Below are positions 43,126 through 64,000 of a DNA stretch of 64,000 bases, one piece after another. The translations under genes and the position numbers were made by a program. This stretch comes from Gammaproteobacteria bacterium. Lineage in GTDB: Bacteria > Pseudomonadota > Gammaproteobacteria > QZLD01. The notes beneath the pieces were generated by a model. That model was given only the letters and a program-made list of their open reading frames with translations. It had not been told where the DNA came from and ran no database searches. Position 1 is the stretch's first letter. Each line of letters begins with the position of its first letter. The stretch is from contig JAWSVB010000010.1 in NCBI GenBank assembly GCA_033852135.1, forward strand, positions 152,716-216,715, read 5' to 3'.

Positions 43126-43160
43126 GATACAGTTGCCGAATAAGAATATAGGTAAAGCCG

Positions 43161-44141: not shown

Positions 44142-44319
44142 CTCGTATTTAATAAGACCATTAATTGCATTAAAGCAAGCTAATCTCAATCTTTTACAAG
44201 AGCCTGTGGGTGATTTTGCAAAAAGATAGTTTATACTGAAAATACCAGTGTGCGTAGGTTGATTTTAGCTTATTATTAGCTAACAATAATATATATGATA
44301 GATTCCGCCAAGGAGATGG

Positions 44320-44946: not shown

Positions 44947-44980
44947 TAATTTTCTTAACAAAAACTTATGCGGAGTTGTA

Positions 44981-45286: not shown

Positions 45287-45418
45287 CTGACTTTTCAGCT
45301 TATTATCAATATAAGTGGGTGCTATAAGGGCCATAAGGCCTTAAAAGGCGTTAGCAATATATCTAACAGCCATAGTTTTTTTGCTCATTATGTTATTGCC
45401 AAATATTAAGTACTCTAA

Positions 45419-45982: not shown

Positions 45983-46108
45983 TTTAAGTAAATACCGCTC
46001 AATTAATAGTCCACCTATGTTTAATTTAATAAGCACATAATGTAAACAAGAGTAAACTTAGATCATAAAATATGGTTAAAAAAATGCGTATAAATAATGG
46101 GGATGTAG

Positions 46109-47054: not shown

Positions 47055-47312
47055 AAAGCCTCTATTTTCGGCCGTTAGTGATATATCCAATATTGATAAT
47101 CAATTTAATAATAAAAGCGATATTTAGTTTTCTCTTATAATCTTTTTTACTTTAAAACCAGAGTTTTTTATCTAACCCCTAATTTTAGTCATTAAATTGC
47201 CGCTAAATTCACTTCAAAACAAGAATTTGTATTTAAAAGATCTATACTTAAAAATTGAGAATTTATATTTTTTATATAGTTTTGATTTCAGAATAACTGT
47301 GAGATTTTCACC

Positions 47313-49187
47313 ATGATTAAAGCATCAATCAAACAGCAAATAGGTTTAGTGGCCGTCATAACTGTAGTTGGAATTTTACTTCTACTGGGGTTGCAGCGCA
47401 CAAGTCGTGAAAAAATTGGGGCAATGGAAGAATTGCGTTCACAATTGCTTACGGTTGAGGCTGATATGCTAGTTTTGCGTAAGAATGAAAAAGATTTTCT
47501 TATCACTAAAGATGTAGAACATGTTGATAAGTTTATTGAAAACCATAAATTAATGCTTAAACAGTCAAATGAACTTGTAGAAGGGCTAGAAAGCCATGAT
47601 CTGGATCATGAAACAGCAGATAAAGTAATAAGTATCTTAAACGAATATAAAAAAGAGTTTTTAGCAGTTGTTGGTATCCAAAAGAAGATCGGTTTAGATC
47701 CAAAAAGTGGTTTGTACGGAAGCCTTCGTGAAGCAGTTCATCAAGCAGAAGAGAAAATATTTCAACAGTTTAATGATAAGCTAGCTAAAGATATGTTGAT
47801 GCTAAGGCGTAGAGAAAAAAATTACATGTTGCGCTTTGATAGTAAATATATTGATAAGTTTGATAATGATTTGATTGTATTTAATCAGGGCTTAAAAAAT
47901 GAATATATGCCGGAAGGCACAAGGCAGCAAATAACTGACCTTATGCAACAATACGATCAATTTTTTAAGAGATTTACTCAAGCCAATATTGAGTTAGGGC
48001 TTTCAACAAATACAGGTGCATATGCAAAGTTAGTATCTGTGGTTAATGAGGGTGAAAAGCAATTAGAAAAATTGCATAAAAGCACAGAAAAAGATATTGA
48101 ATCAGAAGAGGAGGCATCAACTAATACATTGATAGCTCTAGCTTTGATTCTAGTCGTATTGGTTATTGTGGCTGTTATGTTTGTAATGAAATCGATAACT
48201 AAGCCAATTGGAGTTTTCGCTGACTTAATGTCTAAATCAGCAAAAGATTTAGATATAACAGTGCATGCAGATGAAGATGCACCACGTGAAATAGCAATAA
48301 TGGCTAAATCATTCAACAGTATGATGGGTGAATTTAATAGTGCAATTGCTCAAATTAGTAGTATAACTTCAGATTTAAACAATGCTTCAGGCACACTTGA
48401 TGGAGTGTCGGCTACTGTTAATAATGTAGTCTCAGAGCAGTTGAATGAATCTGAAAAAGTTTCAATTGCAATGAATGAGATGACAGCAACTGTAGCTGAC
48501 GTAGCGCTAAACGCAAATACAGCGGCTTCAGCAGCTGAATCTGCTGATACTCAGGCACACCAGGGTAATGATGTTGTATCTGAGAATCAGTCAGAGATAT
48601 CTATCCTGGCACAAAATGTAAACGAAGCTTCGATTGTAATTGGTGAGTTAAGTAAAGAGAGTGAGAACATTGGAACAGTTCTGAGTGTAATTCGAGAAAT
48701 TGCTGAGCAGACTAATCTTCTCGCTCTTAATGCAGCGATTGAAGCTGCACGTGCTGGTGAACAAGGGCGTGGATTTGCCGTTGTTGCTGATGAAGTACGT
48801 ACTCTTGCGCAACGTTCGCAAGAATCTACTGAAGAGATTAAAACAATTGTAGAGCGTTTGCAGCAAACTGCTGAGCAAGCTGTTGAAGCAATGGAAACAG
48901 GTAAAGAGCAAGCGCAAAAAAGTGTAGAAAGATCTCATGTTGCATCTGATATTTTAAAAGTGATACAAGAAGCGATATCCTCAATTAAGGATATGAACTT
49001 CCAGATAGCAACAGCATCTGAAGAGCAATCAGCAGTATCTGAAGAGATAAACCGTAATATTGTTAATATCACTGATATAACCAAGCAAACTAGTGAAAGT
49101 GCAAATCAAGCGGTTCATGCTGGAAAATCACTTTCTGAAACGGCTAATCGCATTACAGATATTGTGCAAAAGTTTAAAACTTCATAG
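47313..49187 (+). CDS. methyl-accepting chemotaxis protein (4HB_MCP-type periplasmic domain, HAMP, MA domain)
   Basis: 624 aa with two TM helices. The highly conserved MCP signalling hairpin [41 protein letters not shown] is present. Confidence 0.9.
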
Positions 49188-49203
49188 TATTGAATACAGT
49201 GTT

Positions 49204-49228
49204 CTGGGGCTGAAAAATCAGCCCCGTT
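49204..49228. terminator. bidirectional terminator (MCP / zinc-ribbon gene convergent)
   Basis: The hairpin ggggctg-aaaaat-cagcccc. Confidence 0.7.
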
Positions 49229-49235
49229 CAACACT

Positions 49236-49781
49236 CTACTTGCTTGCAAGATAAACTAAAATATCCTCTTTGAATTTTGAGGTGTCCAACACTTTTTTAA
49301 ACTCATCTACAATAGTGGTGGTTTCATCGCCAATTGTACCCTTTAAAATCTCTCGCCGTTTATTAGCGCTAGACTCTTTGTTTATCTTTTTTTGCCAACT
49401 TTGTGTAAATACCTTTGGCAAAGAGAAAGATAGGTTTAGTTGTTTTAAAAGTTCCCATTCACCACCATCAAGCCACGCCTCATCGCATGAGTGGCAAACA
49501 TCAAGATGGTTTTTAACCTTGCTGTCCATTTTATATTTTGTCATCAATTTACCGCATTTAGGGCAAGAAATAGCTGTCTTAGTATCACCAGTAGCAGATA
49601 AAGAAATATCATCTGAAAAAACAGGCTCGGCACAGCTTTTTTCTGCCCAATCACGGTAGAAGAAAAGAGGTATTAACTTACCATCACATTTATGACAATT
49701 CGCAGCCAAAAGGCCATCTTCAACTTTAGAAACTCTAAGATCAGCTTTATCACATTTAGGACATTTCATTAAACTACTCAC
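49236..49781 (-). CDS. tandem zf-TFIIB-type zinc-ribbon protein
   Basis: Two CPKC...C..C(D)xxWLDGGE-type modules (CPKCDKADL...CHKCDG and CPKCGKLMTKY...CHSCDEAWLDGGE). Confidence 0.65.
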   Translation of the reverse strand: MSSLMKCPKCDKADLRVSKVEDGLLAANCHKCDGKLIPLFFYRDWAEKSCAEPVFSDDISLSATGDTKTAISCPKCGKLMTKYKMDSKVKNHLDVCHSCDEAWLDGGEWELLKQLNLSFSLPKVFTQSWQKKINKESSANKRREILKGTIGDETTTIVDEFKKVLDTSKFKEDILVYLASK

Positions 49782-49975
49782 AATTTTATTAAGTTAATTA
49801 TTGGGTGATAGTAGCAGAAGTAACCGTGGATATTAATGTTTCAAATTATATATATTGTTGATATGATGAATTTAATAAAGAGTTATATATTCGATGTTTT
49901 TATGGAGATAAATGCATCGTTAATTGGGGTAGAAATTGATGGGGAATCATTTCTTATTTTAATCTTTAAAACCTA

Positions 49976-50698
49976 ATGTTAATGGAAGATTACATGAAAG
50001 AGTTTTTAGATATTGTTATTCAATTTCCAACCGTCATGTTCACAGTTCTACTTGGTGTTATCGTCCTGTATTGGATGTTAGCCGTATTTGGTGTGTTTGA
50101 TCTGGATGTATTGGATTTTGACTTTGATTTGGATCTCGATGCCGACGTAGACTTAGATCTGGATGCTGATGTAGGTGATGCTGGTGATACGCATACAAGT
50201 CACACTGGCATAGGTGGCTTTATGGCTGCTTTGGGATTAGTCGGGGTTCCAGTTACCGTAATTGTTAGCTTGATAGTGATGTGGTGTTGGTTACTTACGC
50301 TGCTGTATGGAGCATATTTACAACCAATGTTACCTGATTGGGGTTTGACCTGGGCTATATCTGCGGTAGTTGTATTTGTAAGTTTTATTATAAGCCTGTT
50401 CCTTACACAGTTTTCTATTAAACCTCTGCAGCCTCTTTTTGAGCATGAAGGAAAAGCTTTGGGCAATAAGGATATTGTTGGGCAACTATGCGAAGTTATT
50501 ACCGGAAGGGTAGATGATAAATTTGGCCAGGCTCGATACAACAAAGATGGCGCGGGTTTAATAATTGAAGTTAGAAATATGAGTGGAGCTGTTCTTAAAA
50601 AAGGGAATACTGCTCTTATAGTTGGTTATAGTGCGGAGAAGATGACCTACAGGGTAGAGCCGTATGAAAACAATTCGTATGAAATTGAAGTTAAGTAA
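49976..50698 (+). CDS. NfeD-family membrane protein with acidic DL-repeat insert
   Basis: TM helices plus a C-terminal OB-fold beta domain typical of NfeD partners of SPFH proteins. It has the insert DLDVLDFDFDLDLDADVDLDLDADVGDAGD. It lies immediately upstream of the flotillin gene. Confidence 0.7.
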   Translation: MLMEDYMKEFLDIVIQFPTVMFTVLLGVIVLYWMLAVFGVFDLDVLDFDFDLDLDADVDLDLDADVGDAGDTHTSHTGIGGFMAALGLVGVPVTVIVSLIVMWCWLLTLLYGAYLQPMLPDWGLTWAISAVVVFVSFIISLFLTQFSIKPLQPLFEHEGKALGNKDIVGQLCEVITGRVDDKFGQARYNKDGAGLIIEVRNMSGAVLKKGNTALIVGYSAEKMTYRVEPYENNSYEIEVK

Positions 50699-50730
50699 AG
50701 GTTGGTTGTTTCAATAACTAATAAGCGGTC

Positions 50731-50764
50731 ATACCGGCGAAGGCCGGTATCCAGTGTTTTATTT
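50731..50764 (+). terminator. hairpin between nfeD and flotillin gene (possible attenuator/partial terminator)
   Basis: ataccggc-gaag-gccggtat, then gttttatttc. Confidence 0.4.
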
Positions 50765-50830
50765 CTGGCTGCTGGATCGTCAGTATTTTTTATATAAATT
50801 TATGATTAAGTAAAAAAATAAGGAGTTAAA

Positions 50831-53032
50831 ATGGAAGGTTTGTTATCACCTGCAACTATCGGTATAGCTGTAATTGTTGCAATTGTATTTTTGATCCTGA
50901 TGGGGATATTGATAATGTTTGCCAAGTTCTTCTGTAAGGTTGAGCAGGGTAAAGCGATGATCGTAAATACCATGAAGGCAAGACCAATTGTCACCTTCAC
51001 CGGAAGACTGGTTCTACCTGTAGTTCATAAAGTTGAGGTGATGGATATCTCTCTAAAGAGAATCGTTATTGACCGTTCCGGTTCCGATGGTCTTATCTGT
51101 CGTGACAATATCCGTGCCGATATCTCAGTTAACTTTTTCGTCCGTGTTAACCCAACAGAGGAAGATGTACTGCGTGTAGCAAGTAATATCGGTTGTGAAA
51201 GAGCATCGGACCAAAAAGTACTCGATAATCTTTGGTCAGCTAAATTTGCAGAGGCTCTAAAAACAGTTGGTAAGCAGATGGATTTTGAGGATCTGTATCA
51301 AGAGCGTGAAAATTTCCGTGATGCAATTAAATCAGTTATTGGTGATGACCTAAATGGCTACAGACTAGAAGATGTTGCGATCGATTACTTAGAACAAACT
51401 CCAGTTGATAACCTTGATAGCCGCAATATTCTTGATGCGCAAGGTATCCGTAAAATTACCGAGCTAACTGCTGTTCAACATGTTGCTGCCAACTTGGCGC
51501 AAAATGATGAGAAGAAGCTGATAACAAAGCAAAACGTTGAAGCTCAAGAAGCTATTCTAGCTCTAGAGAGACAAAAAGCAGATGCAGAAGCAAAACAAAA
51601 ACGTGAGATAGAAACTACAGTTGCACGGGAAGAAGCATCAACAGCGCAGGTGTGTGAAGAGGAGCGCTTAAAATCTGTTCAGGCTAGGATTAAATCCGAC
51701 CAACAGATAGCCGTGGAAGAGGAAAATAAAACTCGTGAAGTTGAGGTTGCTGAGCAAGAGAGACTAAGAGTTCTTGCCATTAAGGAAGAAGAGGTTACTA
51801 GAGCTCGTGAGCTGGAAGTTGTAGCGCGTGAGAAAGAGGTTGCGATTCAGCAGATCGATAAAGAGAAAGCGGTTGAGCAGCAAAAAAGAGAGATTGCTGA
51901 TGTTATTCGTGAGCGTGTATCGGTTGAGCGTACAGTAGCAACAGAAGAAGAGAAGATAAAAGAGGTCAGAGAGGTAAGTGCTGCAGAAAGAAGTAAGCAG
52001 GTTCAGGTGATGCAGGCACAAGCTATCGCTGAAGAGCAAATGGTTAAAGAGGTCAAAGCAGCAGAAGCAGCAGAAAAAGCAGCTAAATTTGAAGCGCAAA
52101 AAGAGATCGCACTGGCTGAGGCAGAGCTTGAGTCTAGTTCTAAACTGGCAGAATCGAAGAAGGTTCTGGCAGAAGGTACACAGGCTGAACAAGCTGCTAG
52201 CGGTTTAGCAGATGCCAGGGTGAAAGAAGCTCAAGCTATTGCACTGGAAAAATATGGTAGATCAGAGGCTGATGTTGAATACCAAAAACTTTCTGCTCGT
52301 GCCAAAGGTAACGAAGAAGAGGGTATGGCCAAGGTCAGGGTTCAAGAGTCTGAAGCAAAAGTTATTAAAGAAAAAGGCGCAGCAGAAGCGTTTGCAACTC
52401 AGCAATCACTTGAAGCAGAAGCTAGCGGTATTAAGGCTCAAGGCCTTGCTGCTGTTGACGTTAAGCGTGCAGAAGCAGATGCAGTTGAACTGCAAGGTAA
52501 AGCAGATGCAGTTGCAATCAGAGAGAAATATCAAGCTGAAGCCAAAGGTCTGACTGAGAAATTCCAGGCACTTAATGGACTGGATGAAAACGGTCGCAAG
52601 CATGAAGAGTTCAGAATCGAACTTGAGAAAAACAAAGAGATTCAACTTGAAGGGATTGAAGCACAGAAAGTGCTTGGTGAAGCTCAATCTAAGATTCTGG
52701 CTGATGCCTTCCATGATGCAAATATCAACATCGTTGGTGGAGATGGTGCATTCTTCGATCGCTTTGTTAAGGCAGTATCTTTGGGTAAATCGATTGATGG
52801 CGTGGTAAACCACAGTGAGACAATCCAAAATGTTGCTGGTGATTATGTTAATGGCGATAAGGATCTGCTGGGTGATATTAAAGAGGTTCTAACTAACTCT
52901 AAGATGTCATCAGAGGATATAAAAAATCTGACCATGTCTGGAGCACTGGCTAAGTTTATGAAAGGTGGGGCGGATAAAGATCAGATCAACGCTCTGTTAG
53001 CCAAGGCAAAAGAGATGGGATTGGGTGAATAA
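50831..53032 (+). CDS. flotillin-like SPFH/Band-7 protein (YqiK/FloT-like) with very long EA-rich coiled coil
   Basis: 733 aa. An N-terminal TM helix is followed by an SPFH domain, then about 400 aa of E/A/K/Q-rich coiled coil and a C-terminal globular part. Confidence 0.85.
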   Translation: MEGLLSPATIGIAVIVAIVFLILMGILIMFAKFFCKVEQGKAMIVNTMKARPIVTFTGRLVLPVVHKVEVMDISLKRIVIDRSGSDGLICRDNIRADISVNFFVRVNPTEEDVLRVASNIGCERASDQKVLDNLWSAKFAEALKTVGKQMDFEDLYQERENFRDAIKSVIGDDLNGYRLEDVAIDYLEQTPVDNLDSRNILDAQGIRKITELTAVQHVAANLAQNDEKKLITKQNVEAQEAILALERQKADAEAKQKREIETTVAREEASTAQVCEEERLKSVQARIKSDQQIAVEEENKTREVEVAEQERLRVLAIKEEEVTRARELEVVAREKEVAIQQIDKEKAVEQQKREIADVIRERVSVERTVATEEEKIKEVREVSAAERSKQVQVMQAQAIAEEQMVKEVKAAEAAEKAAKFEAQKEIALAEAELESSSKLAESKKVLAEGTQAEQAASGLADARVKEAQAIALEKYGRSEADVEYQKLSARAKGNEEEGMAKVRVQESEAKVIKEKGAAEAFATQQSLEAEASGIKAQGLAAVDVKRAEADAVELQGKADAVAIREKYQAEAKGLTEKFQALNGLDENGRKHEEFRIELEKNKEIQLEGIEAQKVLGEAQSKILADAFHDANINIVGGDGAFFDRFVKAVSLGKSIDGVVNHSETIQNVAGDYVNGDKDLLGDIKEVLTNSKMSSEDIKNLTMSGALAKFMKGGADKDQINALLAKAKEMGLGE

Positions 53033-53056
53033 ACAACCTGTCTGATTGTAGTATGT

Positions 53057-53162
53057 GTAGGGTGGGCGCTGTTTGTAGTCGAAGCTCCCACCAATTTAAG
53101 TTTTACCAAATTACATGGTGGGCAGTGCCCACCCTACCTATTGTTTAATTTATGTAGGGTGA
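53057..53162. repeat. cluster of REP-like palindromes (GTAGGGTGGGC ... GCCCACCCTAC) after flotillin gene
   Basis: gtagggtgggcgc at 53057 pairs with gcccaccctac at 53128-53138. There is an internal perfect hairpin ggtgggca-g-tgcccacc and a further partial copy gtagggtg at 53153. Confidence 0.6.
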
Positions 53163-53211
53163 ATTGCTGATAATGATTTGGTATTAAGGATATTCAAGCA
53201 GGAGTCCAACT

Positions 53212-56200
53212 GTGAGTTCAGCAGTTTCCAATACAGACCAGCAAGAGCAAACCTTAGAATCAGGTGGTGTCTATAATGTTATTCGTAAGCGGCTTGAGGA
53301 GCATGGTTCCAGTCTTAATGATAGAGTAAGTGCTTTAAATACTCAAAGGGAGGATGCCTTTGGTAGCACAAATATCACTGTACTTGGATCGTCTCGTGTC
53401 AGAACTGAAAATAACTGTATTGCCCGTGATATTGTTTGTGTTGGTGATCTATTCCTATTTGGTTATAACGTTTATATTGGCTTAAAAACCGAGACCAAGG
53501 TAAGTGATGTTTTTAGCCTTTATCGGCAGCGTAATCAAGAGGATGAACTAGAGCTAGATCATGTACCGCTTGAGGGAACATTTCTTGATGATTCAGATTT
53601 TGTAACCGATTTTAAAGAGCTATACCAATACTATAAAGATTCAAAACTGGTTCAGTTAAGGCGAGGCATTAAAGGCAAATTGCTGGCAATATTCCAGACC
53701 GGTAGCGCAATCACAGATCAGAAGGTTTTTCGCTGGCAAGTATCAGCAGATGGTGAAGTTACATATATAGATAATCGTGGTGAGAACGATAATATAGTTC
53801 CTGAATCTCACGACTTTGAGTGGACCTTTACCACCAGAGATGACCACGTCCGTGGCAAACATTCCCATATAAACATCTTGGATGAGGTTTTTGTTGAAAC
53901 CATTGGTGGTGATCTAACTATTAAGGTGGAAGATAATACCGATGATGGCCAGGGTATATATTCAGAACTAGTAGATGATCCAAATCAGTCACTGCAAGAT
54001 GCTCAGATAGCTTACGCAAAACTTGGAACCCTTATACTGCTAAAAATCAGGCCGTATAAGGAGAAGGATTGGCGTTACCTTATCTACAATAGTCGTGCGC
54101 AAAAAGTAAAAAGAATTGACCAACTTGGTTTGTCAGCAATTCAGTTACCAGAGGATCATGGTGTTATCTTCCCTGGTGGATATTACCTGCAAAATGGTGA
54201 GTTTAAGATTTACGACACCAATGTCGATGATATGTATTTTCTGCGCTCTATCATCTCGCCAAATGGTGAAGATGTTATGTATGTCTTCTACCATTATGAG
54301 GAGGGGCGCTTTGTTCTCCTCTCGTATAATTTAATTCGTAAAGAGTTAGAAAAACCTGTTGTCTGTAATGGTTATGGCCTTTTGGAAAACGGTCATATGG
54401 CAGTATTCCGTGAGCAGAGTCAGGATCCTACCAGAATACATAATCTGCAGTTGTGGCAAACTCCATTCGTGACAGAGGAGTTTGTTGATAAAAATGCCCA
54501 GGAAAACGATTCTGTATTTACCAAAATAGGTAACCCAGATCTGGTTCGTGCAATATCCGATATGTTTAGCGTTTGCAGATCTATAGATAACCAAGAGCCA
54601 ACCTTGGCAAGCTATGAAGATCTAATCGGTTCAATCACCAGAATTATTGATGCATATCATTGGTTATCCAATAGTGAGATTGGCAACTTTGTTGAAGAAC
54701 TAAATCAGATAAGCGCAACTGCTGAACAAGTATTAGATGAGTTCGAAAAAGTTGTAGCTATCAAGAAGCAGGCAACAGAAGCTGTAACCAAGGCTAAAAC
54801 TGAACAAGTAAAACTTATTAAAGAGGTAAAACTTGGAGATTGGTCGACCATAGAGGGTTATATCAATGCCCTAGCTAGATTAAGAACCCAGCGTGGCAAT
54901 CTGATAACTATAAAAGATCTACGCTATGTTGATCTTGAGTCGGTAAAAAGTTTAGAAAATGATGTAATTGAAGCCTTTGATCATGTAAGTAGAAACACCG
55001 TTGATTTTCTTCTTAAAGATGATGCATTCACTCCATATATTGATTCTATAGAGCAGCAGAGTGAACAGATAAACGAGATTAAAACCAGAGTTGACCTAAA
55101 GCCGGTAATTGAAAAACTTGAAGAGATTGGGGAAGGTCTCTCATTATTGACCGAGGTTATTAATCAGCTGGAGATTGAAGATACAACCTCCAGAACTCAA
55201 ATCTTGGAAGGGATATCATCGCTATTTGGAAATCTTAATAAGACCAAGGCAGCAGCAGACATACGCTGGAAAGAGATAGGTAAAAAAGAGGATGTGGCGG
55301 AATTTGGCGCCCAGTTCTTGCTGCTATCTCAAAGCGTATCTAGCGCTATCTCCATGTCCGATACACCAGAAAAGGCAGATGAGAACTTATCCCGCTTATT
55401 GCTGCAGCTAGAAGACCTTGAAGGGCGCTTTGGTGAGCATGAACAATTTGTAGCCGATCTCACCGAAAAAAGGGAGGAGATCTACTCAGCCTTTGAGAGT
55501 AAGAAACAATCATTGGTTGAGCAAAAGCAAAGTAGAGTGCAATCACTTGCTAACGCAGCCGATAGAATTATTGCTGGCATAACTCGTCGGGCAAAAACCA
55601 TAAAAAGTATTGATGAGCTTAACGGCTATTTTGCATCCGACCAGATGGCTCTTAAAGTCAGAACTATAGTTGAACAATTGCGTGAGCTGGATGATAACGT
55701 CAAAGCCGATGATATTGAGAGCAAAATAAAAACTGCACTCGATAGATCGATTCGTTCGCTGCGCGATAAGATAGATATCTTTGCTGACGGTGGAGACACC
55801 ATAAAACTTGGTACCCATAGCTTTAGTGTAAATACGCAAGAACTTGATCTAACCCTGCTATCGCGTAATGATAAACTGGCATTGCATCTTACAGGTACAG
55901 ATTACTACCAAGAGATTGAAGATGAGGCATTAAATGCTGCTCAGGATTATTGGTCACAAACCATAGTATCTGAAAATGATGATGTATATCGTGGTGAATA
56001 TCTAGCATCCTCAATCTATTTTGATGCCGAACATGCAACCAATGGCACCACTCTGGCAGACCTACGTAAGTTAATTACGCAAGAGGATGCCCTAGATCAG
56101 TTTGTAAAAGACTACGCCGCCTCAAGATATGATGAAGGTTACGAGCGGGGTGTGCATGATCATGATGCTGCCAGAATCTTAGAGAAATTACTCTCTTTAA

Positions 56201-58482
56201 AAGAAACGACGGGTCTATTAAGTTTTAGCACAGTTGCCAGATCATTAGCCCTACTATTTTGGGTTTACAGCAAAGGCAATATAACTCGAGAACACTGGCA
56301 GCTACAATGCAGTGGTTTTGGAAAGATCGCAGATTTCTTTGGTGATAGTCCAGATATCGTTGCACTAAAGTCAGAGTTGTCTCAGGCAATTGAAAAGTTC
56401 TTACAGCATGAAAATATTAACTACAGTGAATCGGATCTAAAGATTGCAGGATCCTATCTTGTAGAAGAGCTAAAGCAAGATAACTTAGCTTTTGTGATAA
56501 GTGGTAAGGCAGATGACTTAGCCAATCGATTGCTAACTTATTTAGATCGTAAGAACCAATTGCAAAGCTTCGAAGCCAGCATAAAAGATCTGGATGGAGC
56601 TGTATCTAATCAGGTGCGCTTGGTTGTAGGTTGGCTCAATGGCTTCTTAGGAACCCTTGATGAGAATAAAGCGCAAACACTGGCAAAGTACACCCTAGAG
56701 GCGGCAGTGTTTCTGTTAATTCGCGATAAGGCAGAAAGGCGAATAAGTGATGCAGTTACCGTAGCTCAGATAGATGGGTTATTGGGGCAGCACAATATAA
56801 TTGAAGATCGCAAACTTACAGTTGACCTACCGGAGTTTATTCAACGCCTAGCGGCATATCATAATACCGTTGTTCCGGGATTCAGACAGCTACGCGAGCT
56901 AAAAACCAATATCACCAAAGCAGAGCGAAATTCACTGCGAGTAGATGAGTTTATCGCGCAAGAGCTAACCTCATTTGTGCGTAATAAACTTATTAACGAT
57001 GTTTACCTCCCCCTTGTCGGCACCAACCTTGCCAAACAGATGGGAACCGTAGGTGAAAATAAACGTACCGATCTTATGGGAACACTGCTACTTATATCGC
57101 CACCTGGATATGGTAAGACCACCCTGATGGAATATATTGCCAATCGAGTTGGGTTGGTGTTTATGAAGATAAACTGCCCAACCATTGGTCACTCAGTAAC
57201 CTCTATTGATCCTGAGGAGGCGACCAGTGCTGCGGCAAAACAGGAGTTAAATAAGCTCAATCTAGCCCTGGAGATGGGGAGCAACGTGATGCTCTATCTT
57301 GATGATATTCAGCATACCAATCCCGAGTTCTTGCAGAAGTTTATCTCCCTCTGTGATGCGCAAAGAAAGATAGACGGTGTATGGCGAGGCAATGCTAAAA
57401 CCTACGATCTGCGTGGTAAAAAGTTCTGTGTCATCATGGCTGGAAACCCATATACAGAATCGGGCGAAGCATTCAAAATACCAGATATGCTTTCTAATCG
57501 TGCTGATGTATATAATCTAGGTGACGTATTTAGCGGTAATGAAGATATCTTCAACCTAAGTTACATTGAAAATGCGATGACATCTAATAGTGTTCTCGCT
57601 CCGTTAGCATCACGCGAGATGGATGATTTTTATGCATTTATCAAGATGGCGCAGGGCGGCCAAATAGCCACAAACGCGCTGAAACATAATTACTCTGGTG
57701 CTGAAGTAAATGAGATTGTAGCGGTGTTAAAGCACCTGTTTACAATTCAGAGCGTGATATTAAAAGTAAATTCGCAATACATCGCATCTGCATCCCAGGA
57801 TGATGCTTATAGAACCGAGCCACCATTCAAACTGCAAGGCTCATATAGAAATATGTGCCGCATGGCAGAAAAAGTAGTGGCAATAATGAATCAGGAAGAG
57901 ATAGATCAACTGATTCTGGATCATTATATTGGTGAAGCACAAACCCTGACCACCGGAGCTGAAGAGAATCTACTCAAGCTGGCGGAGTTACGCGGCTTAA
58001 TGTCTCCAGAGCAAGAGCAGCGATGGGGTGAGATCAAAAAGACCTATAGCAAAAACCAAAGTATGGGTGGAGATGAAGACCCGGTAACTAAAGTTGCAGG
58101 TCAGTTAAACCTACTTTCAGGTCAAGTTGATGGAATCAAGTCTGCAATACTCACAGCGTCTGATGCTAATAACTCACCGCAGATCGAACTATTGGAAAAG
58201 TTTGATAACACCATGGAGCTATTGGCCAAAATGCAGCTACAGGTTCAAGTGACAAATCAACCAGTGCCAGGTCTGGAACCACTACTTGGAACTATGGCCT
58301 CAACTATCGAAGGGTCATTGCTGCCTGTTGTAAAAGCGATGGAGCATAAGTTAAGACTCGACCATGATATCTGGGATACCCTAAATGGTGTGGTGAAAGA
58401 GCTAAAAGGGATAGATAAAGAAAGATTCGGTAAGTTAGAGATGAATAAAGAGGTGCGTGGAGTCTTTGACCCGAATGAGTAA
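53212..58482 (+). CDS. giant (1756 aa) coiled-coil protein with C-terminal MoxR/AAA_5-like ATPase module; function unknown
   Basis: One uninterrupted ORF. Walker A LLLISPPGYGKTT is at nt 57101-57124 (aa ~1297). Walker B VMLYLDDIQH is at nt ~57286-57315. A sensor-like stretch CVIMAGNPYTESGEAFKIPDMLSNRADVYNLG resembles MoxR/RavA/dynein-type AAA_5. The N-terminal ~1250 aa have no motif I recognise, with predicted coiled coils around aa 480-560 and 700-820. Confidence 0.8.
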   Translation: MSSAVSNTDQQEQTLESGGVYNVIRKRLEEHGSSLNDRVSALNTQREDAFGSTNITVLGSSRVRTENNCIARDIVCVGDLFLFGYNVYIGLKTETKVSDVFSLYRQRNQEDELELDHVPLEGTFLDDSDFVTDFKELYQYYKDSKLVQLRRGIKGKLLAIFQTGSAITDQKVFRWQVSADGEVTYIDNRGENDNIVPESHDFEWTFTTRDDHVRGKHSHINILDEVFVETIGGDLTIKVEDNTDDGQGIYSELVDDPNQSLQDAQIAYAKLGTLILLKIRPYKEKDWRYLIYNSRAQKVKRIDQLGLSAIQLPEDHGVIFPGGYYLQNGEFKIYDTNVDDMYFLRSIISPNGEDVMYVFYHYEEGRFVLLSYNLIRKELEKPVVCNGYGLLENGHMAVFREQSQDPTRIHNLQLWQTPFVTEEFVDKNAQENDSVFTKIGNPDLVRAISDMFSVCRSIDNQEPTLASYEDLIGSITRIIDAYHWLSNSEIGNFVEELNQISATAEQVLDEFEKVVAIKKQATEAVTKAKTEQVKLIKEVKLGDWSTIEGYINALARLRTQRGNLITIKDLRYVDLESVKSLENDVIEAFDHVSRNTVDFLLKDDAFTPYIDSIEQQSEQINEIKTRVDLKPVIEKLEEIGEGLSLLTEVINQLEIEDTTSRTQILEGISSLFGNLNKTKAAADIRWKEIGKKEDVAEFGAQFLLLSQSVSSAISMSDTPEKADENLSRLLLQLEDLEGRFGEHEQFVADLTEKREEIYSAFESKKQSLVEQKQSRVQSLANAADRIIAGITRRAKTIKSIDELNGYFASDQMALKVRTIVEQLRELDDNVKADDIESKIKTALDRSIRSLRDKIDIFADGGDTIKLGTHSFSVNTQELDLTLLSRNDKLALHLTGTDYYQEIEDEALNAAQDYWSQTIVSENDDVYRGEYLASSIYFDAEHATNGTTLADLRKLITQEDALDQFVKDYAASRYDEGYERGVHDHDAARILEKLLSLKETTGLLSFSTVARSLALLFWVYSKGNITREHWQLQCSGFGKIADFFGDSPDIVALKSELSQAIEKFLQHENINYSESDLKIAGSYLVEELKQDNLAFVISGKADDLANRLLTYLDRKNQLQSFEASIKDLDGAVSNQVRLVVGWLNGFLGTLDENKAQTLAKYTLEAAVFLLIRDKAERRISDAVTVAQIDGLLGQHNIIEDRKLTVDLPEFIQRLAAYHNTVVPGFRQLRELKTNITKAERNSLRVDEFIAQELTSFVRNKLINDVYLPLVGTNLAKQMGTVGENKRTDLMGTLLLISPPGYGKTTLMEYIANRVGLVFMKINCPTIGHSVTSIDPEEATSAAAKQELNKLNLALEMGSNVMLYLDDIQHTNPEFLQKFISLCDAQRKIDGVWRGNAKTYDLRGKKFCVIMAGNPYTESGEAFKIPDMLSNRADVYNLGDVFSGNEDIFNLSYIENAMTSNSVLAPLASREMDDFYAFIKMAQGGQIATNALKHNYSGAEVNEIVAVLKHLFTIQSVILKVNSQYIASASQDDAYRTEPPFKLQGSYRNMCRMAEKVVAIMNQEEIDQLILDHYIGEAQTLTTGAEENLLKLAELRGLMSPEQEQRWGEIKKTYSKNQSMGGDEDPVTKVAGQLNLLSGQVDGIKSAILTASDANNSPQIELLEKFDNTMELLAKMQLQVQVTNQPVPGLEPLLGTMASTIEGSLLPVVKAMEHKLRLDHDIWDTLNGVVKELKGIDKERFGKLEMNKEVRGVFDPNE

Positions 58483-58537
58483 CTCTTGGTTTATTTCTAT
58501 TCGTTACTCCGCTCTGCTTAAAAATGTATAAACACAT

Positions 58538-58635
58538 CCTCGTTCCCACGCTCTGCGTAGGAATGCATACTGGATTTAATATAGGGGCAAGGCTCTGAAC
58601 TCTCGTTCCCACGCTCTGCGTGGGAATGCATATGG
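58538..58635. repeat. two direct REP copies (cctcgttcccacgctctgcgtRggaatgcata) upstream of the RAYT gene
   Basis: Copies are at 58538-58574 and 58600-58635. Each contains the palindrome cccacgc-tct-gcgtggg. Confidence 0.8.
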
Positions 58636-58644
58636 GATAAAAAT

Positions 58645-59175
58645 ATGGGACGAAATAGATATAATTTCACAGAGAAAAATTTACCTCACTTTATGACGTT
58701 TACAGTGCTTCATTGGATTCCTATATTTACACGCCAATCGACAGTGGATATTGTTTTTGACTCACTTAGATACCTTATGAATGAAGGTATGAGAGTTCAT
58801 GCTTATGTAGTGCTTGAAAACCACTTACATCTAATATCCCAAAGTGAACAATTAAGTCGGGATGTTTCCCGCTTTAAGTCTTATACAGCTAGAAGATTGA
58901 TTGAATATTTGGAAGAACACAATGTTAGTAGAATATTGGATCAACTCAAGTTTTATAAAAAAGCCCATAAACCTGATAGGGCTTATCAGTTTTGGGAGGA
59001 AGGTGTTCATCCTGAGTGGATACAAAATGAAGAAATGATGCGGCAGAAAATTAACTATATTCACGATAATCCGGTTAAACGCGGGTATGTTGATTTGCCA
59101 GAGAATTGGCGTTATTCAAGTGCTAGAGCTTATAAAGGTCAAGAGAGTTTGCTAGAGGTAGATAGGTTTTGGTAA
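58645..59175 (+). mobile_element. REP-associated tyrosine transposase (RAYT, IS200/IS605-like TnpA_REP)
   Basis: 176 aa. An HxH-type motif (ENHLHLI) and a catalytic Tyr region (RYSSARAY) typical of Y1 HUH transposases. It is flanked by inverted REPs. Confidence 0.8.
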
Positions 59176-59180
59176 GTAAG

Positions 59181-59213
59181 TATGCATTACCACGCAGAGC
59201 GTGGGAACGAGAG
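59181..59213. repeat. inverted REP copy (tatgcattaccacgcagagcgtgggaacgagag) downstream of RAYT
   Basis: Reverse complement of the upstream REP with one mismatch. It completes the REP-RAYT-REP (REPtron) unit. Confidence 0.8.
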
Positions 59214-59698
59214 TGATGTCTCCTGAGCAGGAGCAGCGATGGGGTGAGATCAAAAAGACCTATAGCAAAAACCAAAGTATGGGTGGAGATGAAGATCCGG
59301 TAACTAAAGTTGCAGGTCAGTTAAACCTACTTTCAGGTCAAGTTGATGGAATCAAGTCTGCAATACTCACAGCGTCTGATGCTAATAACTCACCGCAGAT
59401 CGAACTTTTGAAAAAGTTTGATAACACCATGGAGCTATTGGCCAAAATGCAGCTACAGGTCCAGGTGACAAATCAACCAGTGCCAGGTCTGGAACCATTA
59501 TTGGGAACCATGGCCTCAACTATCGAAGGGTCATTACTACCTGTTGTTAAAGCGATGGAGCATAAGTTAAGACTCGACCATGATATCTGGGATACCCTAA
59601 ATGGTGTGGTGAAAGAGCTAAAAGGGATAGATAAAGAAAGATTCGGTAAGTTAGAGATGAATAAAGAGGTGCGTGGAGTCTTTGACCCGAATGAGTAG
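59201..59698 (+). CDS. free-standing second copy of the giant protein's C-terminal 160-aa module (duplicate of 58000-58482); intact ORF
   Basis: The 483-nt stretch 59216-59698 is about 97% identical to 58000-58482. Identity begins exactly at an in-frame ATG and ends exactly at the stop codon. 14 of about 15 substitutions are synonymous (one E to K). The track ORF's extra N-terminal residues MGTRV are read out of the REP. Confidence 0.6.
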   Translation: MGTRVMSPEQEQRWGEIKKTYSKNQSMGGDEDPVTKVAGQLNLLSGQVDGIKSAILTASDANNSPQIELLKKFDNTMELLAKMQLQVQVTNQPVPGLEPLLGTMASTIEGSLLPVVKAMEHKLRLDHDIWDTLNGVVKELKGIDKERFGKLEMNKEVRGVFDPNE

Positions 59699-59829
59699 CA
59701 GAGTAAAAATAGTAATTAGTCTGTTTCTACTTTCAGTATCGATGTTGTCTGCTGCAAATGAAGTAGAGAATAAATTTATCCATGCAGGTCTTTACAAATT
59801 AATGCCTTGGTAAACAATGGTTAAGATTG

Positions 59830-60279
59830 CTAGTGTTGATCTTTGGGTGAATTAGAAATTATCCAGAACCTATCATCAAAATACTTTTCTAAGCATGGTT
59901 TTACATAATTCCAACTTAATCCACCACCCCCACATCCAGGGCGTGGAATAATAACTTTGCTCCAGCCATTTTTATTAACCATTGAAACCAATTCTTGGCA
60001 GGATTTCTCAATTATTTTTAGTTCAGGGTTCTCAAATGAACTGTTTTCTACCGGAAAGCTGATCAATCCATCAATTACTTCATAAACCTGTATTCCACTT
60101 TCCAGAATCAGGGTTCCCAGTTTTTGAGGGAGATCAGGAAAACGGTCTTTAGCTTGTCTAGCACAACCCCTTGGCATTGAGCATTTGCCTTTTTTGCTAA
60201 CAGCACCTGCTGTTGTTATAACAACAGGATGTTTACCAAAGTAATCCCAGATATTTCCCGTTATTTCATTCATTTGCAA
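59830..60279 (-). CDS. stand-alone macro-domain protein (DarG/TARG1-like ADP-ribose binding/hydrolysing fold), putative
   Basis: 149 aa. The N-terminal ITGNIWDY...[30 protein letters not shown] parallels the macro-domain segment GDLF...VNTVNxVGVMGKGIAxxFKxxFP. The C-terminal glycine-rich loop [14 protein letters not shown] parallels the macro-domain diphosphate-binding loop. Assigned from memory of family consensus, not from a search. Confidence 0.45.
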
Positions 60280-60312
60280 TTACCAAAAAAAGTTAAAGAA
60301 GATTTTAGTTTA

Positions 60313-60347
60313 GACCGAAGGTGCGATTGTTGATTGCGATGTTATGG
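60313..60347. repeat. partial copy of islet repeat (gaccgaaggtgcgattgttgattgcgatgttatgg)
   Basis: Matches the 3-prime conserved half of the repeats at 60776-60845 and 61339-61414. Confidence 0.6.
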
Positions 60348-60638
60348 AACACAACTTCTAACAATGAGCGAACATGATAGATGCTTTGTATTAGCAACTG
60401 GGTAACGCCACAATCAAATGAAAATCCAGTTTACAATAAAACTAGAACGAAGGCACGTTGGCCTTAAAAGATAAGGAAAACAAATCAGAGCTTAAGCTTG
60501 CAATCCCTTTTAACCCATCTGATAAAGTGCCTATCAACAACTGGTAATGCTATGAATTGCCCTACTCCAACCCAAGCTGAGCATTGGGATGAGAACTTAA
60601 AAGCACAATTGGTGAAGTTGCCTGAGACAGATATTTTG

Positions 60639-60662
60639 AATTGTTCAGGCGCCTGAACAATT
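60639..60662. promoter_or_regulatory. 24-bp perfect palindrome aattgttcaggcgcctgaacaatt
   Basis: Perfect dyad symmetry inside a 570-bp ORF-free stretch. Confidence 0.4.
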
Positions 60663-60775
60663 GAACTTGAGATTGCAAGATAAGCGATAGGAAAGTAAAG
60701 ATGCTAAGGCAGTAATTTGAACTTGAATCTACGATTTAACCAACTAAAAGAGCTTTAAGATAAATGATGCATAAT

Positions 60776-60845
60776 GCCCGCGATAACCGCTTGCGGTTTG
60801 AAGTCCAGTGCGTGAAATGCACGATGGTTGATTGCATTGTTAGGC
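60776..60845. repeat. islet repeat copy B (~70 nt, multi-hairpin) abutting stop codon of 60849-61316 gene
   Basis: gcccgcgataaccgcttgcggtttgaagtccagtgcgtgaaatgcacgatggttgattgcattgttaggc. It contains the hairpins ccgcttgcgg and cgtgaaatgcacg. Confidence 0.7.
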
Positions 60846-60848
60846 TTA

Positions 60849-61316
60849 TTAAGTAACATAATTTATTTGACCGTTATCGGATATAAAACCAAAACCCGTA
60901 ATTACTCCGCTACTACACCAACCGGGTAAAACATATTTACAGTCCCATTTTATTGGAAAGACATCCAAACGCTCAAGGCCTAAAGCATTATAAAAAGACC
61001 TCAAATACAATTCATCAGGCGCACTCATACCTTCCCAAAAATTAAACTTTTGTTCACCTACGAATATTAATGGTTGGCTATCAGGGAGTTCTTCCTCTGG
61101 GCAAACATATCCACAAAGGGTTTTACCATTAGCTAACTTAAACTCAGCAATAGCAACATACATCGACATAGTTTGAGAAAGTTCTTGTTCAGTCCCACTT
61201 TGAACAGACGCTTCATCTATTGCTCCGTCATCATCTTCAGAGAGGTATATCCACAGTGGATAATCCTTAAGATCACTTTCAGTTAGATCATATACTTGTT
61301 TAACCACCTTTTTCAT
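60849..61316 (-). CDS. hypothetical protein (155 aa), acidic N-terminus, no recognised family
   Basis: ORF only. It is tightly packed between islet repeats A and B. Confidence 0.45.
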   Translation of the reverse strand: MKKVVKQVYDLTESDLKDYPLWIYLSEDDDGAIDEASVQSGTEQELSQTMSMYVAIAEFKLANGKTLCGYVCPEEELPDSQPLIFVGEQKFNFWEGMSAPDELYLRSFYNALGLERLDVFPIKWDCKYVLPGWCSSGVITGFGFISDNGQINYVT

Positions 61317-61338
61317 CGGTATATCCTATAAGCATAAC

Positions 61339-61414
61339 GCCCGCAATAACCGGCGAAAACCACTTGCGGTTTTGAGTCCAGTGCCGAAGGCACGATGGTT
61401 GATGGCGATGTTAG
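61339..61414. repeat. islet repeat copy A (~76 nt) overlapping stop codon of DUF4262-like gene
   Basis: gcccgcaataaccggcgaaaaccacttgcggttttgagtccagtgccgaaggcacgatggttgatggcgatgttag. The hairpins are aaaaccacttgcggtttt and gtgccgaaggcac. Confidence 0.7.
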
Positions 61415-61857
61415 TTTTCATACAGTTGAGGTATAAACCATGTATAGTCTTCTGGTGCACCTGAATCCCAGGGCCATACACCAGATGTGCTTGGATATAT
61501 TAGCTGCAGTACTTTGAAAGAATCGCCTTTATAAAGCCATTTTGCCCAACCAAAATATTCTTGATAGTGCTTTTTTTCAACTTCTTTAAATGTTACTTCA
61601 AATTCATCAAGGAACCCAGAATAGTATTTGTTTGCTTCAAATACTACACCTGATTTTACTCTGTTGTTATATTCATTAATCAGCCAGTGAGCTATTTCAT
61701 GGTTGAGACCGGTGATTATTATTTCTGGTTGGTTTGTATTTTTTTCGATGCCAATAGAATAGGAAAACCTAGGGTATTGGTCTTCTTCCATTATATGAAT
61801 GATATGGCAGCCATATTCTTTTATATCACTTAATGCTCTTTCTTCGTTTTTATCCAT
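61411..61857 (-). CDS. DUF4262-like protein (family often found as immunity-type genes in toxin/defence islands)
   Basis: 148 aa. The segment EYGCHIIHIMEEDQYPRFSYSIGIEKNTNQPEIIITGL matches the conserved DUF4262 core as I recall it (GCHV..V......PFAYTVGL....PELIVFGL). Confidence 0.5.
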   Translation of the reverse strand: MDKNEERALSDIKEYGCHIIHIMEEDQYPRFSYSIGIEKNTNQPEIIITGLNHEIAHWLINEYNNRVKSGVVFEANKYYSGFLDEFEVTFKEVEKKHYQEYFGWAKWLYKGDSFKVLQLIYPSTSGVWPWDSGAPEDYTWFIPQLYEN

Positions 61858-61885
61858 GAGCTACCTTTTGAAAACTAACTTGTAT

Positions 61886-61920
61886 TAGACGTCGACGTTA
61901 TACGTCGAAAACGACGTCTA
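61886..61920. promoter_or_regulatory. nested palindromes with three GACGTC cores upstream of the DUF4262-like gene
   Basis: tagacgtcg...cgacgtcta form 9-bp outer arms. The inner palindrome is cgacgt-tat-acgtcg. Confidence 0.4.
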
Positions 61921-62149
61921 GACCCTAAAATAATTTATTATTGACGATTTTTTATCGACACTCACTGAATTTACCCCTTAAGTACGAGTATTACAATTTA
62001 TGTGTCATATTTCTAGTAACCTAATTATTTTGGTAGGTTATGGGGTAGCTATCTATTTTGATCTTTAATATCTCTTTACCACATATTAAATTAATTATTC
62101 AAAATTTTGCTTACCAGTAAAATCAATTTATAATTCTCCCTCTTAAAAA

Positions 62150-62944
62150 ATGAGCATAATTATGAAACTCGCAGCATGCGTTGAATATGATGGAACTGAT
62201 TTCCACGGTTGGCAAACCCAAAATTGTGGGTGCCGCACTGTGCAAAGCGAGGTTGAGGCTGCACTGTCTATAGTTGCAAATTCACCTGTTTCAATAACAT
62301 GTTCTGGCAGAACTGATGCTGGAGTTCATGGTTATGGTCAAATCATTCACTTTGAGACCGAAGCGGTAAGAAATGAACGCAGTTGGATATTAGGGGTAAA
62401 TTCAAATTTACCGCGCGATATTGGAGTTTCATGGGTTAAACCTGTTAAAGAAGATTTTAATGCACGTTTTACTGCGTTGTCGCGTCGTTACCGTTATGTG
62501 ATTTATCAGTCTATGGTAAGGCCAGCAATTTTACGCAGCAAAGTAGCATGGAGTCTTAGAAATTTAGATGCCGATGCAATGCATGAAGCTGCGCAAGTTT
62601 TAATTGGTGAGAAGGATTTTTCTAGTTTTCGCGCCGCTGGATGCCAAGCTTCCCACCCAAGACGTGAAGTACAATTTGTTAATGTAAGCTCTGCAGGTGA
62701 TTTTACTTATATCGATATTCAGGCCAACGCTTTTTTACACCACATGGTGCGTAATATTGCAGGTGTTCTGATGAAGGTTGGTGATGGGAGAAAGAGTATT
62801 GGTTGGGTTAAAGAGGTATTAGATGCTAAGTGTAGGACAGCTGCTGATATTACTGCTCCAGCTCAAGGGCTTTATTTTGTTTCGGTAAAATACCCGGAGG
62901 AATACTCTATCCCTGAGTCTCCACTGCGGACTATATATAGTTAA
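62150..62944 (+). CDS. truA: tRNA pseudouridine(38-40) synthase TruA
   Basis: 264 aa with the N-terminus KLAACVEYDGTDFHGWQ(TQ) and a catalytic Asp region (GRTDAGVHG). Confidence 0.93.
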   Translation: MSIIMKLAACVEYDGTDFHGWQTQNCGCRTVQSEVEAALSIVANSPVSITCSGRTDAGVHGYGQIIHFETEAVRNERSWILGVNSNLPRDIGVSWVKPVKEDFNARFTALSRRYRYVIYQSMVRPAILRSKVAWSLRNLDADAMHEAAQVLIGEKDFSSFRAAGCQASHPRREVQFVNVSSAGDFTYIDIQANAFLHHMVRNIAGVLMKVGDGRKSIGWVKEVLDAKCRTAADITAPAQGLYFVSVKYPEEYSIPESPLRTIYS

Positions 62945-63303
62945 ACTGTTCTTCTTTTAACACATTCAAACCAGTAATCAGCTAACTTATCATTGTGCGG
63001 TACACCGTGCCCGGTTTGATACATTCTTGCTAATAGCAGCTGAGCAGGGGAGAACCCTTCTATTGCTGACATTCGATAGTAGAACGCAGCCTTATCAATA
63101 TCTTCATCATAAACTGCATATTTCTCAATCCGCTTTGCTATCTCATAATTTGTTTTACCAGAACTAATCTCAACCTGATTGCTTCCTGATAGGTGCTCTT
63201 CGATAAATGCTGTTACTAATGTCATCTCTTTCTCCTTTGGGCACATATTGTGGAGTACATAACCATGCGTAGCATGGAGTATGCCAATGATCTGCGAAGG
63301 CAT
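62941..63303 (-). CDS. Sel1-like/TPR repeat protein
   Basis: 120 aa with the Sel1 consensus AQLLLARMYQTGHGVPHNDKLADYWF. Confidence 0.6.
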   Translation of the reverse strand: MPSQIIGILHATHGYVLHNMCPKEKEMTLVTAFIEEHLSGSNQVEISSGKTNYEIAKRIEKYAVYDEDIDKAAFYYRMSAIEGFSPAQLLLARMYQTGHGVPHNDKLADYWFECVKRRTV

Positions 63304-63396
63304 TGTTTATAAGGTTCTGCTAATATATAGCGGGAGATGAATTCAAAACTTTAATAGATATTTAAAATAAATAGTTGTTTTTTTGACGCAGGAGTT

Positions 63397-63936
63397 TTAT
63401 TTGTGTTTTGCAGTACGTTTCTTAAGCCTGATTTCACGACGGTTTTTCCAATGGCGAATGATATGGGCGCGCCAGATAAGCTTAATTGCGAAATAAGAAA
63501 CTGTTGCAAAGAATAATCCGGAAAGAATAGAGCCAAGATAAAGTGGCTTCCAGATTTCAATAAGCTGGGTTGTAAACCATTCAGAGGTTAGCTCAATGCT
63601 AAATTCACTTGGCGGCACCCCTAATATCCATGCACCTAGTTTATAGGTTGGGTAAAAAATTGGTAACCAAGTGATAGGGTTAGATATCCAAACCAAAGCA
63701 ACAGATAACGGCATATTCATTCTAAAAATCAAAGCAAGTACTGCGGCTAGCCCCATCTGAAAAGGCATAGGCATAAATGCCGCGAATACTCCGATCCAAA
63801 ATGCTCCTGCAACAGAATGACGATTTAGATGCCAAAGGTTTTGGTCATAGATTCGTTCTCCAAGAAAATCTAATTTTCCATGCTTTCTAAACTCATGTGG
63901 TTTAGGCAGGTATTTTTTTAAGAAATTTCTCGGCAT
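63397..63936 (-). CDS. DUF2062-family inner membrane protein
   Basis: 179 aa. The basic N-terminus is followed by 3-4 TM helices, a topology typical of DUF2062. Family assignment is tentative. Confidence 0.5.
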   Translation of the reverse strand: MPRNFLKKYLPKPHEFRKHGKLDFLGERIYDQNLWHLNRHSVAGAFWIGVFAAFMPMPFQMGLAAVLALIFRMNMPLSVALVWISNPITWLPIFYPTYKLGAWILGVPPSEFSIELTSEWFTTQLIEIWKPLYLGSILSGLFFATVSYFAIKLIWRAHIIRHWKNRREIRLKKRTAKHK

Positions 63937-64000
63937 TAATTTTTCTTTATTAGATTTAGGGTATATCGTCTATACGGGCTAGTTGCACATTTTAGAGTAG

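Follow-up and report, generated by a model that had tools for sequence, protein, structure and literature searches.

The 64,000-nucleotide (nt) stretch of gammaproteobacterial DNA analysed here (contig JAWSVB010000010.1, positions 152,716 to 216,715; hereafter the window, numbered from its first letter) carries, at 53212..58482 on the plus strand, the gene for a giant ATPase of 1756 amino acids (aa) that starts at a GTG codon and is a typical member of a known, experimentally uncharacterised family, not a new kind of system. In nearly every locus sampled, genes of this family accompany a flotillin gene of the YqiK type, mostly together with a YqiJ-like one, and a subset of loci encodes PspA as well; we lean, if only slightly, towards a reading in which the ATPase docks on a flotillin/YqiJ-like assembly or on PspA polymers and remodels them with ATP under envelope stress. 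The mode of action of bacterial flotillins and the energy supply of flotillin and PspA assemblies are open questions, and the family comprises more than 5,800 proteins from many phyla that are ~50% identical over 1,750 residues, are almost always flotillin-linked and go under a misleading ‘DNA repair’ name. The window provides a clean example of it, in which the domain boundaries are defined, the folds modelled and the identities of the partners tested, and which could be useful for experiments; its sole addition to the existing record is a strain-specific rearrangement.

The open reading frame (ORF) is real, as had been proposed from the letters alone: it runs for 1756 codons from a GTG, AGGAG is found 7 nt 5’ of the GTG and residue 1 aligns to the M1 of homologues. 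Two Pfam families match the region upstream of the ATPase domain, with DUF3686 (PF12458) matching aa 35-483 (nt 53314..54660, plus strand; E=7.9e-196, 651 bits, model positions 2-448 of 448) and DUF7902 matching aa 604-687 (nt 55021-55272, plus strand; E=3e-26). The original prediction had seen no motif in the N-terminal ~1250 residues and had been unable to name a family of this layout; the first statement holds for catalytic motifs, but both DUF3686 and DUF7902 are strongly recognised by profile hidden Markov models, and the second is overturned, as the Pfam set of DUF3686, DUF7902 and AAA/AAA_5 is common to more than 5,800 homologues, some with an NCBI name. A word-indexed search returned more than 5,879 homologues of the ATPase, the best 120 of which align over 93-100% of the query at ~50% identity and show the same Pfam set, and an exhaustive HMMER scan with query aa 1-500 gave only 726 clusters at 50% identity. 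Since complete family matches are also confined to lengths of 1,600-2,036 aa, DUF3686 occurs in essentially one architecture. Identity of ~50% is held across Pseudomonadota, Myxococcota, Actinomycetota, Planctomycetota and Acidobacteriota, and the loci recovered by our genome scan come from Pseudomonas, Xanthomonadales, Pseudoalteromonas, Xenorhabdus, Myxococcota, actinomycetes, Planctomycetota and Acidobacteriota; such cross-phylum conservation in a single architecture fits a conserved cellular machine. In keeping with the original prediction, no full-length match to a characterised family emerged, the family being catalogued but uncharacterised.

The ATPase gene stands third in an operon, after genes for a multi-pass YqiJ/NfeD-like membrane protein of 240 aa (49976..50698, plus strand) and a YqiK-type flotillin of 733 aa (50831..53032, plus strand) whose parts are a membrane segment at the N-terminus, an SPFH/Band-7 domain and an extended coiled coil rich in E, A and K. 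Neither partner protein of the window has a Pfam match; among their orthologues, Band_7 matches 3 of 14 flotillins, and the 240-aa proteins give weak matches to YqiJ_N (2 of 13) and NfeD (1 of 13). Their identities are settled by hhalign comparisons of the family alignments with E. coli K-12 proteins, in which the 733-aa family matched YqiK (99.9% probability, E=7e-32, 406 columns) and the 240-aa family matched YqiJ (94.8% probability, E=5e-8). The source names of relatives of the 733-aa protein (‘flotillin family protein’, ‘YqiK’, ‘Band 7 domain-containing protein’) are of the same kind, and a sequence comparison of the flotillin with solved structures gave a single weak match, to QmcA.

Gene linkage was determined in a sample of 80 loci, one genome per species, in which neighbours were identified by tblastn with defined queries; naive ORF clustering gave antisense artefacts in GC-rich loci, and the neighbour counts are hence taken from tblastn. 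A flotillin relative (~45-55% identity) lies upstream of the ATPase gene, mostly directly, in 79 of the 80 loci, and a YqiJ-like relative just 5’ of the flotillin gene in 71. Genes for PspA (19/80) and DUF2170 (22/80) are found upstream as well, and genes for a PLD-family hydrolase (11/80) and a rhomboid protein (7/80) usually downstream; the window has none of these four.

This operon, with its ‘novel AAA+ ATPase’, has been described in a survey of phage-shock proteins (Ravi et al., mSystems 2024; PMC11237479), and the window protein agrees with it in domain order, length class, whole-length identity (~50%) and flotillin/YqiJ context. According to the survey, an abbreviated form of the operon that lacks PspA has the wider distribution, a dyad of CesT/Tir (DUF2170) and PspA marks the full-length form (DUF2170 being the YjfI family, assigned to the CesT/Tir superfamily) and the proposed roles are sub-membrane dynamics and chaperone-like assembly of membrane-linked complexes (PMC11237479). 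Compared to the family described there, the protein itself is no different, and what the window adds lies downstream of the gene, a REP/RAYT insertion and a second copy of the tail segment. Full-text searches yielded nothing on DUF3686, DUF7902, PF12458 or a ‘DNA repair ATPase’ together with flotillin, and neither a paper on SPFH evolution nor one on P. aeruginosa SPFH proteins mentions the ATPase.

All three ATPase motifs that had been read from the letters are present on the plus strand: Walker A PPGYGKTT at aa 1297-1304 (nt 57100-57123, one base upstream of the 57101-57124 first given), Walker B LYLDDIQH at aa 1361-1368 (nt 57292-57315) and the sensor segment IMAGNPYTESGEAFKIPDMLSNRADVYNLG, with the sensor-1 Asn and a candidate Arg finger, at aa 1408-1437 (nt 57433-57522). 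Walker A and Walker B are spaced by 60 residues inside one AAA+ domain, and the motifs are not chance occurrences, since the Pfam AAA_5 and AAA models both score above their curated cut-offs. In 40 homologues the residues of these motifs are invariant or nearly so, and the Walker A Lys, the Walker B Asp-Asp, the sensor-1 Asn, the candidate Arg finger and the sensor-2 Arg are all invariant. Walker B reads L-D-D-I-Q-H, with Asp-Asp in place of the usual Asp-Glu, in all 40.

That the protein was called MoxR-like is right as to its neighbourhood, but not as to its family. AAA_5 (PF07728) matches with 33.5 bits against a cut-off of 22 (model positions 2-125 of 139), level with the generic AAA model (33.4 bits) and with a small margin for the AAA_5/MoxR-dynein-midasin placement over ClpA and ClpB (12.6 and 12.5), and in the predicted structure the fold of the AAA+ module appears closest to CbbQ, NorQ, dynein and midasin. 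This AAA+ clade is marked by a beta-hairpin ahead of sensor 1 and an insert in helix 2; of the two, the model shows a beta-hairpin that directly precedes the strand of sensor 1 (strands 526-531 and 534-539 of the model). Searched by sequence against solved structures, the ATPase gave Walker-A-level matches only. The MoxR model AAA_3 scores 14.2 bits, below its cut-off of 27, and hhalign gives E. coli RavA a probability of 4%. MoxR proteins such as CbbQ, NorQ and RavA pair with partners that carry a von Willebrand factor A (vWA) domain, and none was seen in the Pfam-scanned neighbour ORFs of the window or in the scanned representatives of conserved neighbours in related loci. A RavA/ViaA-like identity was rejected on these three counts. 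MoxR proteins are also ~250-500 aa long, whereas the AAA+ module of the window protein ends a chain of 1,756 aa; and dynein and midasin concatenate six AAA+ modules and have their arm inserted in a module, whereas the window ATPase has one module per chain and an arm N-terminal to it.

The domain order could be delineated on two AlphaFold2 models, each built from a 40-sequence alignment and covering aa 1-900 (mean predicted local distance difference test score, pLDDT, 82.7) and aa 861-1756 (mean pLDDT 79.1). As predicted, an N-terminal helix (aa 20-50) is followed by an all-beta, propeller-like domain of ~26 strands (aa 56-416), a helical arm of long antiparallel helices that includes DUF7902 (aa 422-856; nt 54475..55779, plus strand), a segment of aa 861-1245 (nt 55792..56946, plus strand) that belongs to no recognised family and consists of a short beta-hairpin segment (aa 861-900) and a compact all-alpha domain modelled with very high confidence (aa ~925-1245), the AAA+ module with its lid and further helices (aa ~1250-1600; nt 56959..58011, plus strand; aa ~1290-1620 in the model) and a variable C-terminal tail. 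The majority fraction is highest in the AAA+ core (0.82-0.89) and lowest in the tail (0.43-0.45), which is present in all homologues, is 139-268 aa long and is their least conserved region; its helical part (aa ~1620-1756) is modelled at pLDDT <50.

Among the best Foldseek matches of these models are IFT-A subunits (800-1,000 columns), the clathrin terminal domain with its linker and the Vps18 propeller, and with this order of propeller and helical repeat, a spectrin-like arm and a Walker B Asp-Asp that could mean slow hydrolysis, the protein might be a coat or scaffold that shapes flotillin membrane domains and uses its AAA+ module mainly as an assembly switch, without unfolding or extracting substrates. 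We consider this improbable. The likeness to coat proteins is topological only, since template modelling (TM) scores are 0.06-0.33 and root-mean-square deviations large, and conservation is highest in the AAA+ module, where all catalytic-type residues are invariant, which suggests real enzymatic turnover.

The models also bear on the names under which the family is filed. Where the sources name homologues, they use ‘DNA repair ATPase’, ‘AAA family ATPase’ or ‘MoxR-like ATPase’, and Pfam describes DUF3686 as an ‘ATPase involved in DNA repair’. The database name ‘DNA repair ATPase’ is probably wrong, and we give hardly any credence to the corresponding explanation, an SMC/Rad50-like coiled-coil enzyme that acts on DNA. 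Beyond the inherited Pfam and NCBI names, the long helical region bears a superficial resemblance to SMC/Rad50 coiled coils, but in structure comparison it matches folded-back spectrin-like bundles. In SMC and Rad50 an antiparallel coiled coil divides the ABC-type head, so that Walker A is at one end and Walker B with the signature motif at the other, whereas the AAA+ domain here is contiguous and near the C-terminus; a Pfam scan detected no DNA-binding domain, the conserved partners are membrane proteins and the sampled loci show no recurrent nuclease or DNA-metabolism neighbour.

The role that we favour for the ATPase is that of a subunit of a widespread three-gene inner-membrane module with the YqiJ/NfeD-like protein and the YqiK-type flotillin. 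By analogy with the solved complexes of QmcA with YbbJ and of HflK/C with FtsH, the flotillin and the YqiJ-like protein would build a membrane-anchored SPFH assembly at the cytoplasmic face. The ATPase would oligomerise via its AAA+ module and dock with its propeller and helical arm on the SPFH assembly or on PspA polymers, and ATP hydrolysis would then remodel, disassemble or extract components during envelope stress or membrane repair. HflK/C-FtsH, in which an SPFH cage encloses an AAA+ protease, sets a precedent for an SPFH scaffold that works with an AAA+ machine at the inner membrane, and QmcA-YbbJ is an SPFH-NfeD complex of the scaffold class to which the flotillin and YqiJ-like protein of the window are homologous. 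FtsH is a membrane-anchored AAA protease of the classical clade; the window ATPase, by contrast, has no membrane segment, and a Pfam scan detected no protease domain in it.

More speculatively, and in our view rather doubtfully, flotillin and PspA (ESCRT-III-like) assemblies may draw their so far missing energy from the ATPase, which would be a single-chain mechano-enzyme of the dynein/MoxR kind: its AAA+ ring would disassemble or reshape the SPFH cage or the PspA polymer, with the propeller and the spectrin-like arm as its grip. If true, it would correspond in bacteria, though made from unrelated parts, to Vps4 in its action on ESCRT-III or to FtsH within HflK/C.

Several observations weigh against a remodelling role at the flotillin assembly. 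We found no experimental study of the activity or interactions of the ATPase, comparative genomics being all that the searches turned up, and the protein has no membrane segment. The Walker B Asp-Asp, as read from the sequence, could make ATP hydrolysis slow or regulatory. Neither PspA nor DUF2170 is encoded in the 64-kb window, as judged by tblastn with queries from locus L005, and the window operon is for this reason of the ‘abbreviated’ form. Finally, in Beggiatoa alba B18LD (L001, JH600070.1) the ATPase gene stands apart from flotillin and YqiJ-like genes, neither of which occurs in the 10 kb to its left or right. At that locus, a gene for a BACON-domain protein lies 5’ and one for a DDE transposase 3’ of the ATPase gene.

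The downstream PLD-family (11/80) and rhomboid (7/80) genes, together with a variable insertion site directly downstream of the ATPase gene in close relatives, raise the question of a conflict or anti-phage system similar to abortive infection, in which the ATPase senses invasion by its propeller and arm and activates PLD, rhomboid or flotillin effectors. Defence systems commonly hold large multi-domain NTPases. We nevertheless rate this a shade below the coat reading: the effector-like genes occur in a minority of loci only. With PADLOC-DB 2.0, none of the models matched the three operon proteins beyond the generic Walker-A level, the ATPase giving marginal P-loop-level matches (IetA at E=6e-4, mad8 and TRIP13) and the flotillin and YqiJ-like protein none. 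High conservation in a single architecture across phyla is unlike fast-evolving defence genes, and the three genes are syntenic in four related genomes.

Downstream of the ATPase gene, the window departs from its relatives. The last 483 nt of the gene (58000..58482, plus strand), which begin at the ATG of Met1597 (nt 58000) and encode the tail of aa 1597-1756, recur at 59216..59698 on the plus strand as an intact ORF of 160 codons from ATG to stop. The downstream copy had been noted in the original prediction and is borne out: the two differ at 15 of 483 nt, with 159 of 161 aligned residues identical, and the ends of the duplicated segment fall within ~2 nt of the Met1597 ATG and of the stop codon. 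Between the copies lies a repetitive extragenic palindromic (REP)/RAYT insertion (58483..59215, plus strand). It encodes a REP-associated tyrosine transposase (RAYT) of 176 aa (58645-59175; NCBIfam NF047646, 91.2 bits against a cut-off of 80), flanked by REP palindromes with the core TTCCCACGCTCTGCGTGGGAA that are direct upstream (58543-58563 and 58606-58626) and inverted downstream (59187-59207). These three sites are the only ones in the window, where none is expected by chance, and the arrangement of inverted REP palindromes around a transposase gene is that of a REP/RAYT element (REPtron).

The original prediction had taken the downstream copy as a sign that the last ~160 residues form an autonomous module, and this claim is not supported. 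We read the second tail copy as what a rearrangement has left behind, in this strain only, at a variable site adjoining REP/RAYT; it lies outside the design of the family. Four related genomes carry the ATPase gene and the three-gene operon at a constant syntenic position. Close relatives of the window are L082, with an ATPase that is 88% identical to that of the window at the protein level, and the sister genome L085 and L086, with ATPases in the 90%-identity cluster of the window protein (the closest relatives are NCBI assemblies GCA_041156805.1 and GCA_041156845.1). All three retain the operon and the downstream truA-Sel1-DUF2062 genes, and all three are without the REP/RAYT element and the second tail copy. 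The stretch from the ATPase stop codon to truA (window 58497-62128) is variable, with contents that differ among all four related genomes: nothing in L082, a Peptidase_M15 gene and two ORFs in L085, a 194-aa ORF in L086, and in the window RAYT, the tail copy and three minus-strand ORFs that include one for a DUF4262 protein (61411-61857).

The DNA 3’ of copy 2 is collinear with the DNA 3’ of the L085 ATPase stop codon, window 59216-59818 corresponding to L085 14789-15394, window 59823-60859 to L085 16027-17063 and window 61875-64000 to L085 17780-19906, with ~630 bp of the Peptidase_M15 gene lost in the window. This collinearity places copy 2 at the ancestral 3’-end position of the gene. The extra DNA in the window genome amounts to 1,216 bp, made up of one 483-bp tail copy and the REP/RAYT block. 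The 160-aa tail ORF is annotated in the window genome alone, where it forms a cluster of one, and an extra tail copy was found in none of the 67 other loci with a complete ATPase ORF; copy 2 is therefore no proof that the tail is autonomous. Its position next to REP/RAYT and ahead of ancestral DNA, together with the poor conservation of the tail and its modelling at pLDDT <50, adds to the case against a separable module.

The substitutions between the copies speak for the contrary explanation, that copy 2 is a functional stand-alone protein of 160 aa and the tail thus an autonomous module. Of the 15 differences, 13 are synonymous, one is a K/E replacement and one changes TAA to TAG. When polarised with the relatives, copy 1 has acquired eight changes (seven synonymous and K1662E) and copy 2 seven (six synonymous and TAA to TAG), so that the ORF of copy 2, running exactly from ATG to stop, has changed synonymously at all six coding positions and otherwise only in its stop codon. 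With dS at 0.124 and dN at 0.0027 between the copies (dN/dS ~0.02), the neutral chance of at least 13 of 14 coding changes being synonymous is 3e-8, and that of 6/6 in the copy-2 lineage ~1e-4. Long neutral decay of copy 2 is excluded by this near-all-synonymous pattern. It is, however, equally explained by allele divergence in the full-length genes of two lineages that were joined recently: such recombination gives an identical substitution pattern, and the divergence between the copies (3.1%) resembles that between strains (4-6%). Copy 2 has also retained the ancestral downstream DNA, no other genome has a stand-alone tail copy, conservation of the tail is poor and its model of low confidence, a REP hairpin lies directly 5’ of the copy-2 ATG and no well-spaced ribosome-binding site is visible. 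We thus regard a functional stand-alone tail as unlikely and keep to the by-product of a rearrangement. If copy 2 is expressed, the fragment may titrate the binding partner of the tail in this strain. The rearrangement itself is instructive on a small scale, as a case of a REP/RAYT element that sits at a variable point of the chromosome.

Divergently from the operon, a gene at 49236..49781 on the minus strand encodes a double TFIIB-type zinc ribbon protein of 181 aa (Pfam Zn_ribbon_TFIIB, E=7.5e-9). Relatives of this protein are encoded at four of the loci, three times in the gap between the flotillin and ATPase genes (L054, L067 and L077, from Massilia, Aquabacterium and related bacteria) and once 3’ of the ATPase gene (L028), as well as in the close relatives L084 and L085, while a remnant only is left in L082. 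The zinc-ribbon protein may be an occasional fourth component.

The flotillin and ATPase genes of the window are 179 nt apart, and between them lies a G+C-rich palindrome, GGTGGGCAGTGCCCACC, at 53113-53137, with the related motifs GTAGGGTGGGCG and TGTAGGGTGAA nearby (53060-53140). The window holds no further copies of the palindrome, which may act as a terminator or attenuator or may be one more REP-like element. No Rfam family reached its gathering score within 49000-62200, and promoter and terminator scans gave counts no higher than in shuffled sequence.

The G+C content is ~39%. The region 5’ of the operon (42355-49187) is devoted to motility and chemotaxis and includes a gene for a methyl-accepting chemotaxis protein of 624 aa at 47313-49187. 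The syntenic region of L082 (1-6348) contains MotA/MotB and PilZ genes, and by synteny the window ORFs at 42355-44946 probably encode MotA/MotB and PilZ proteins as well.

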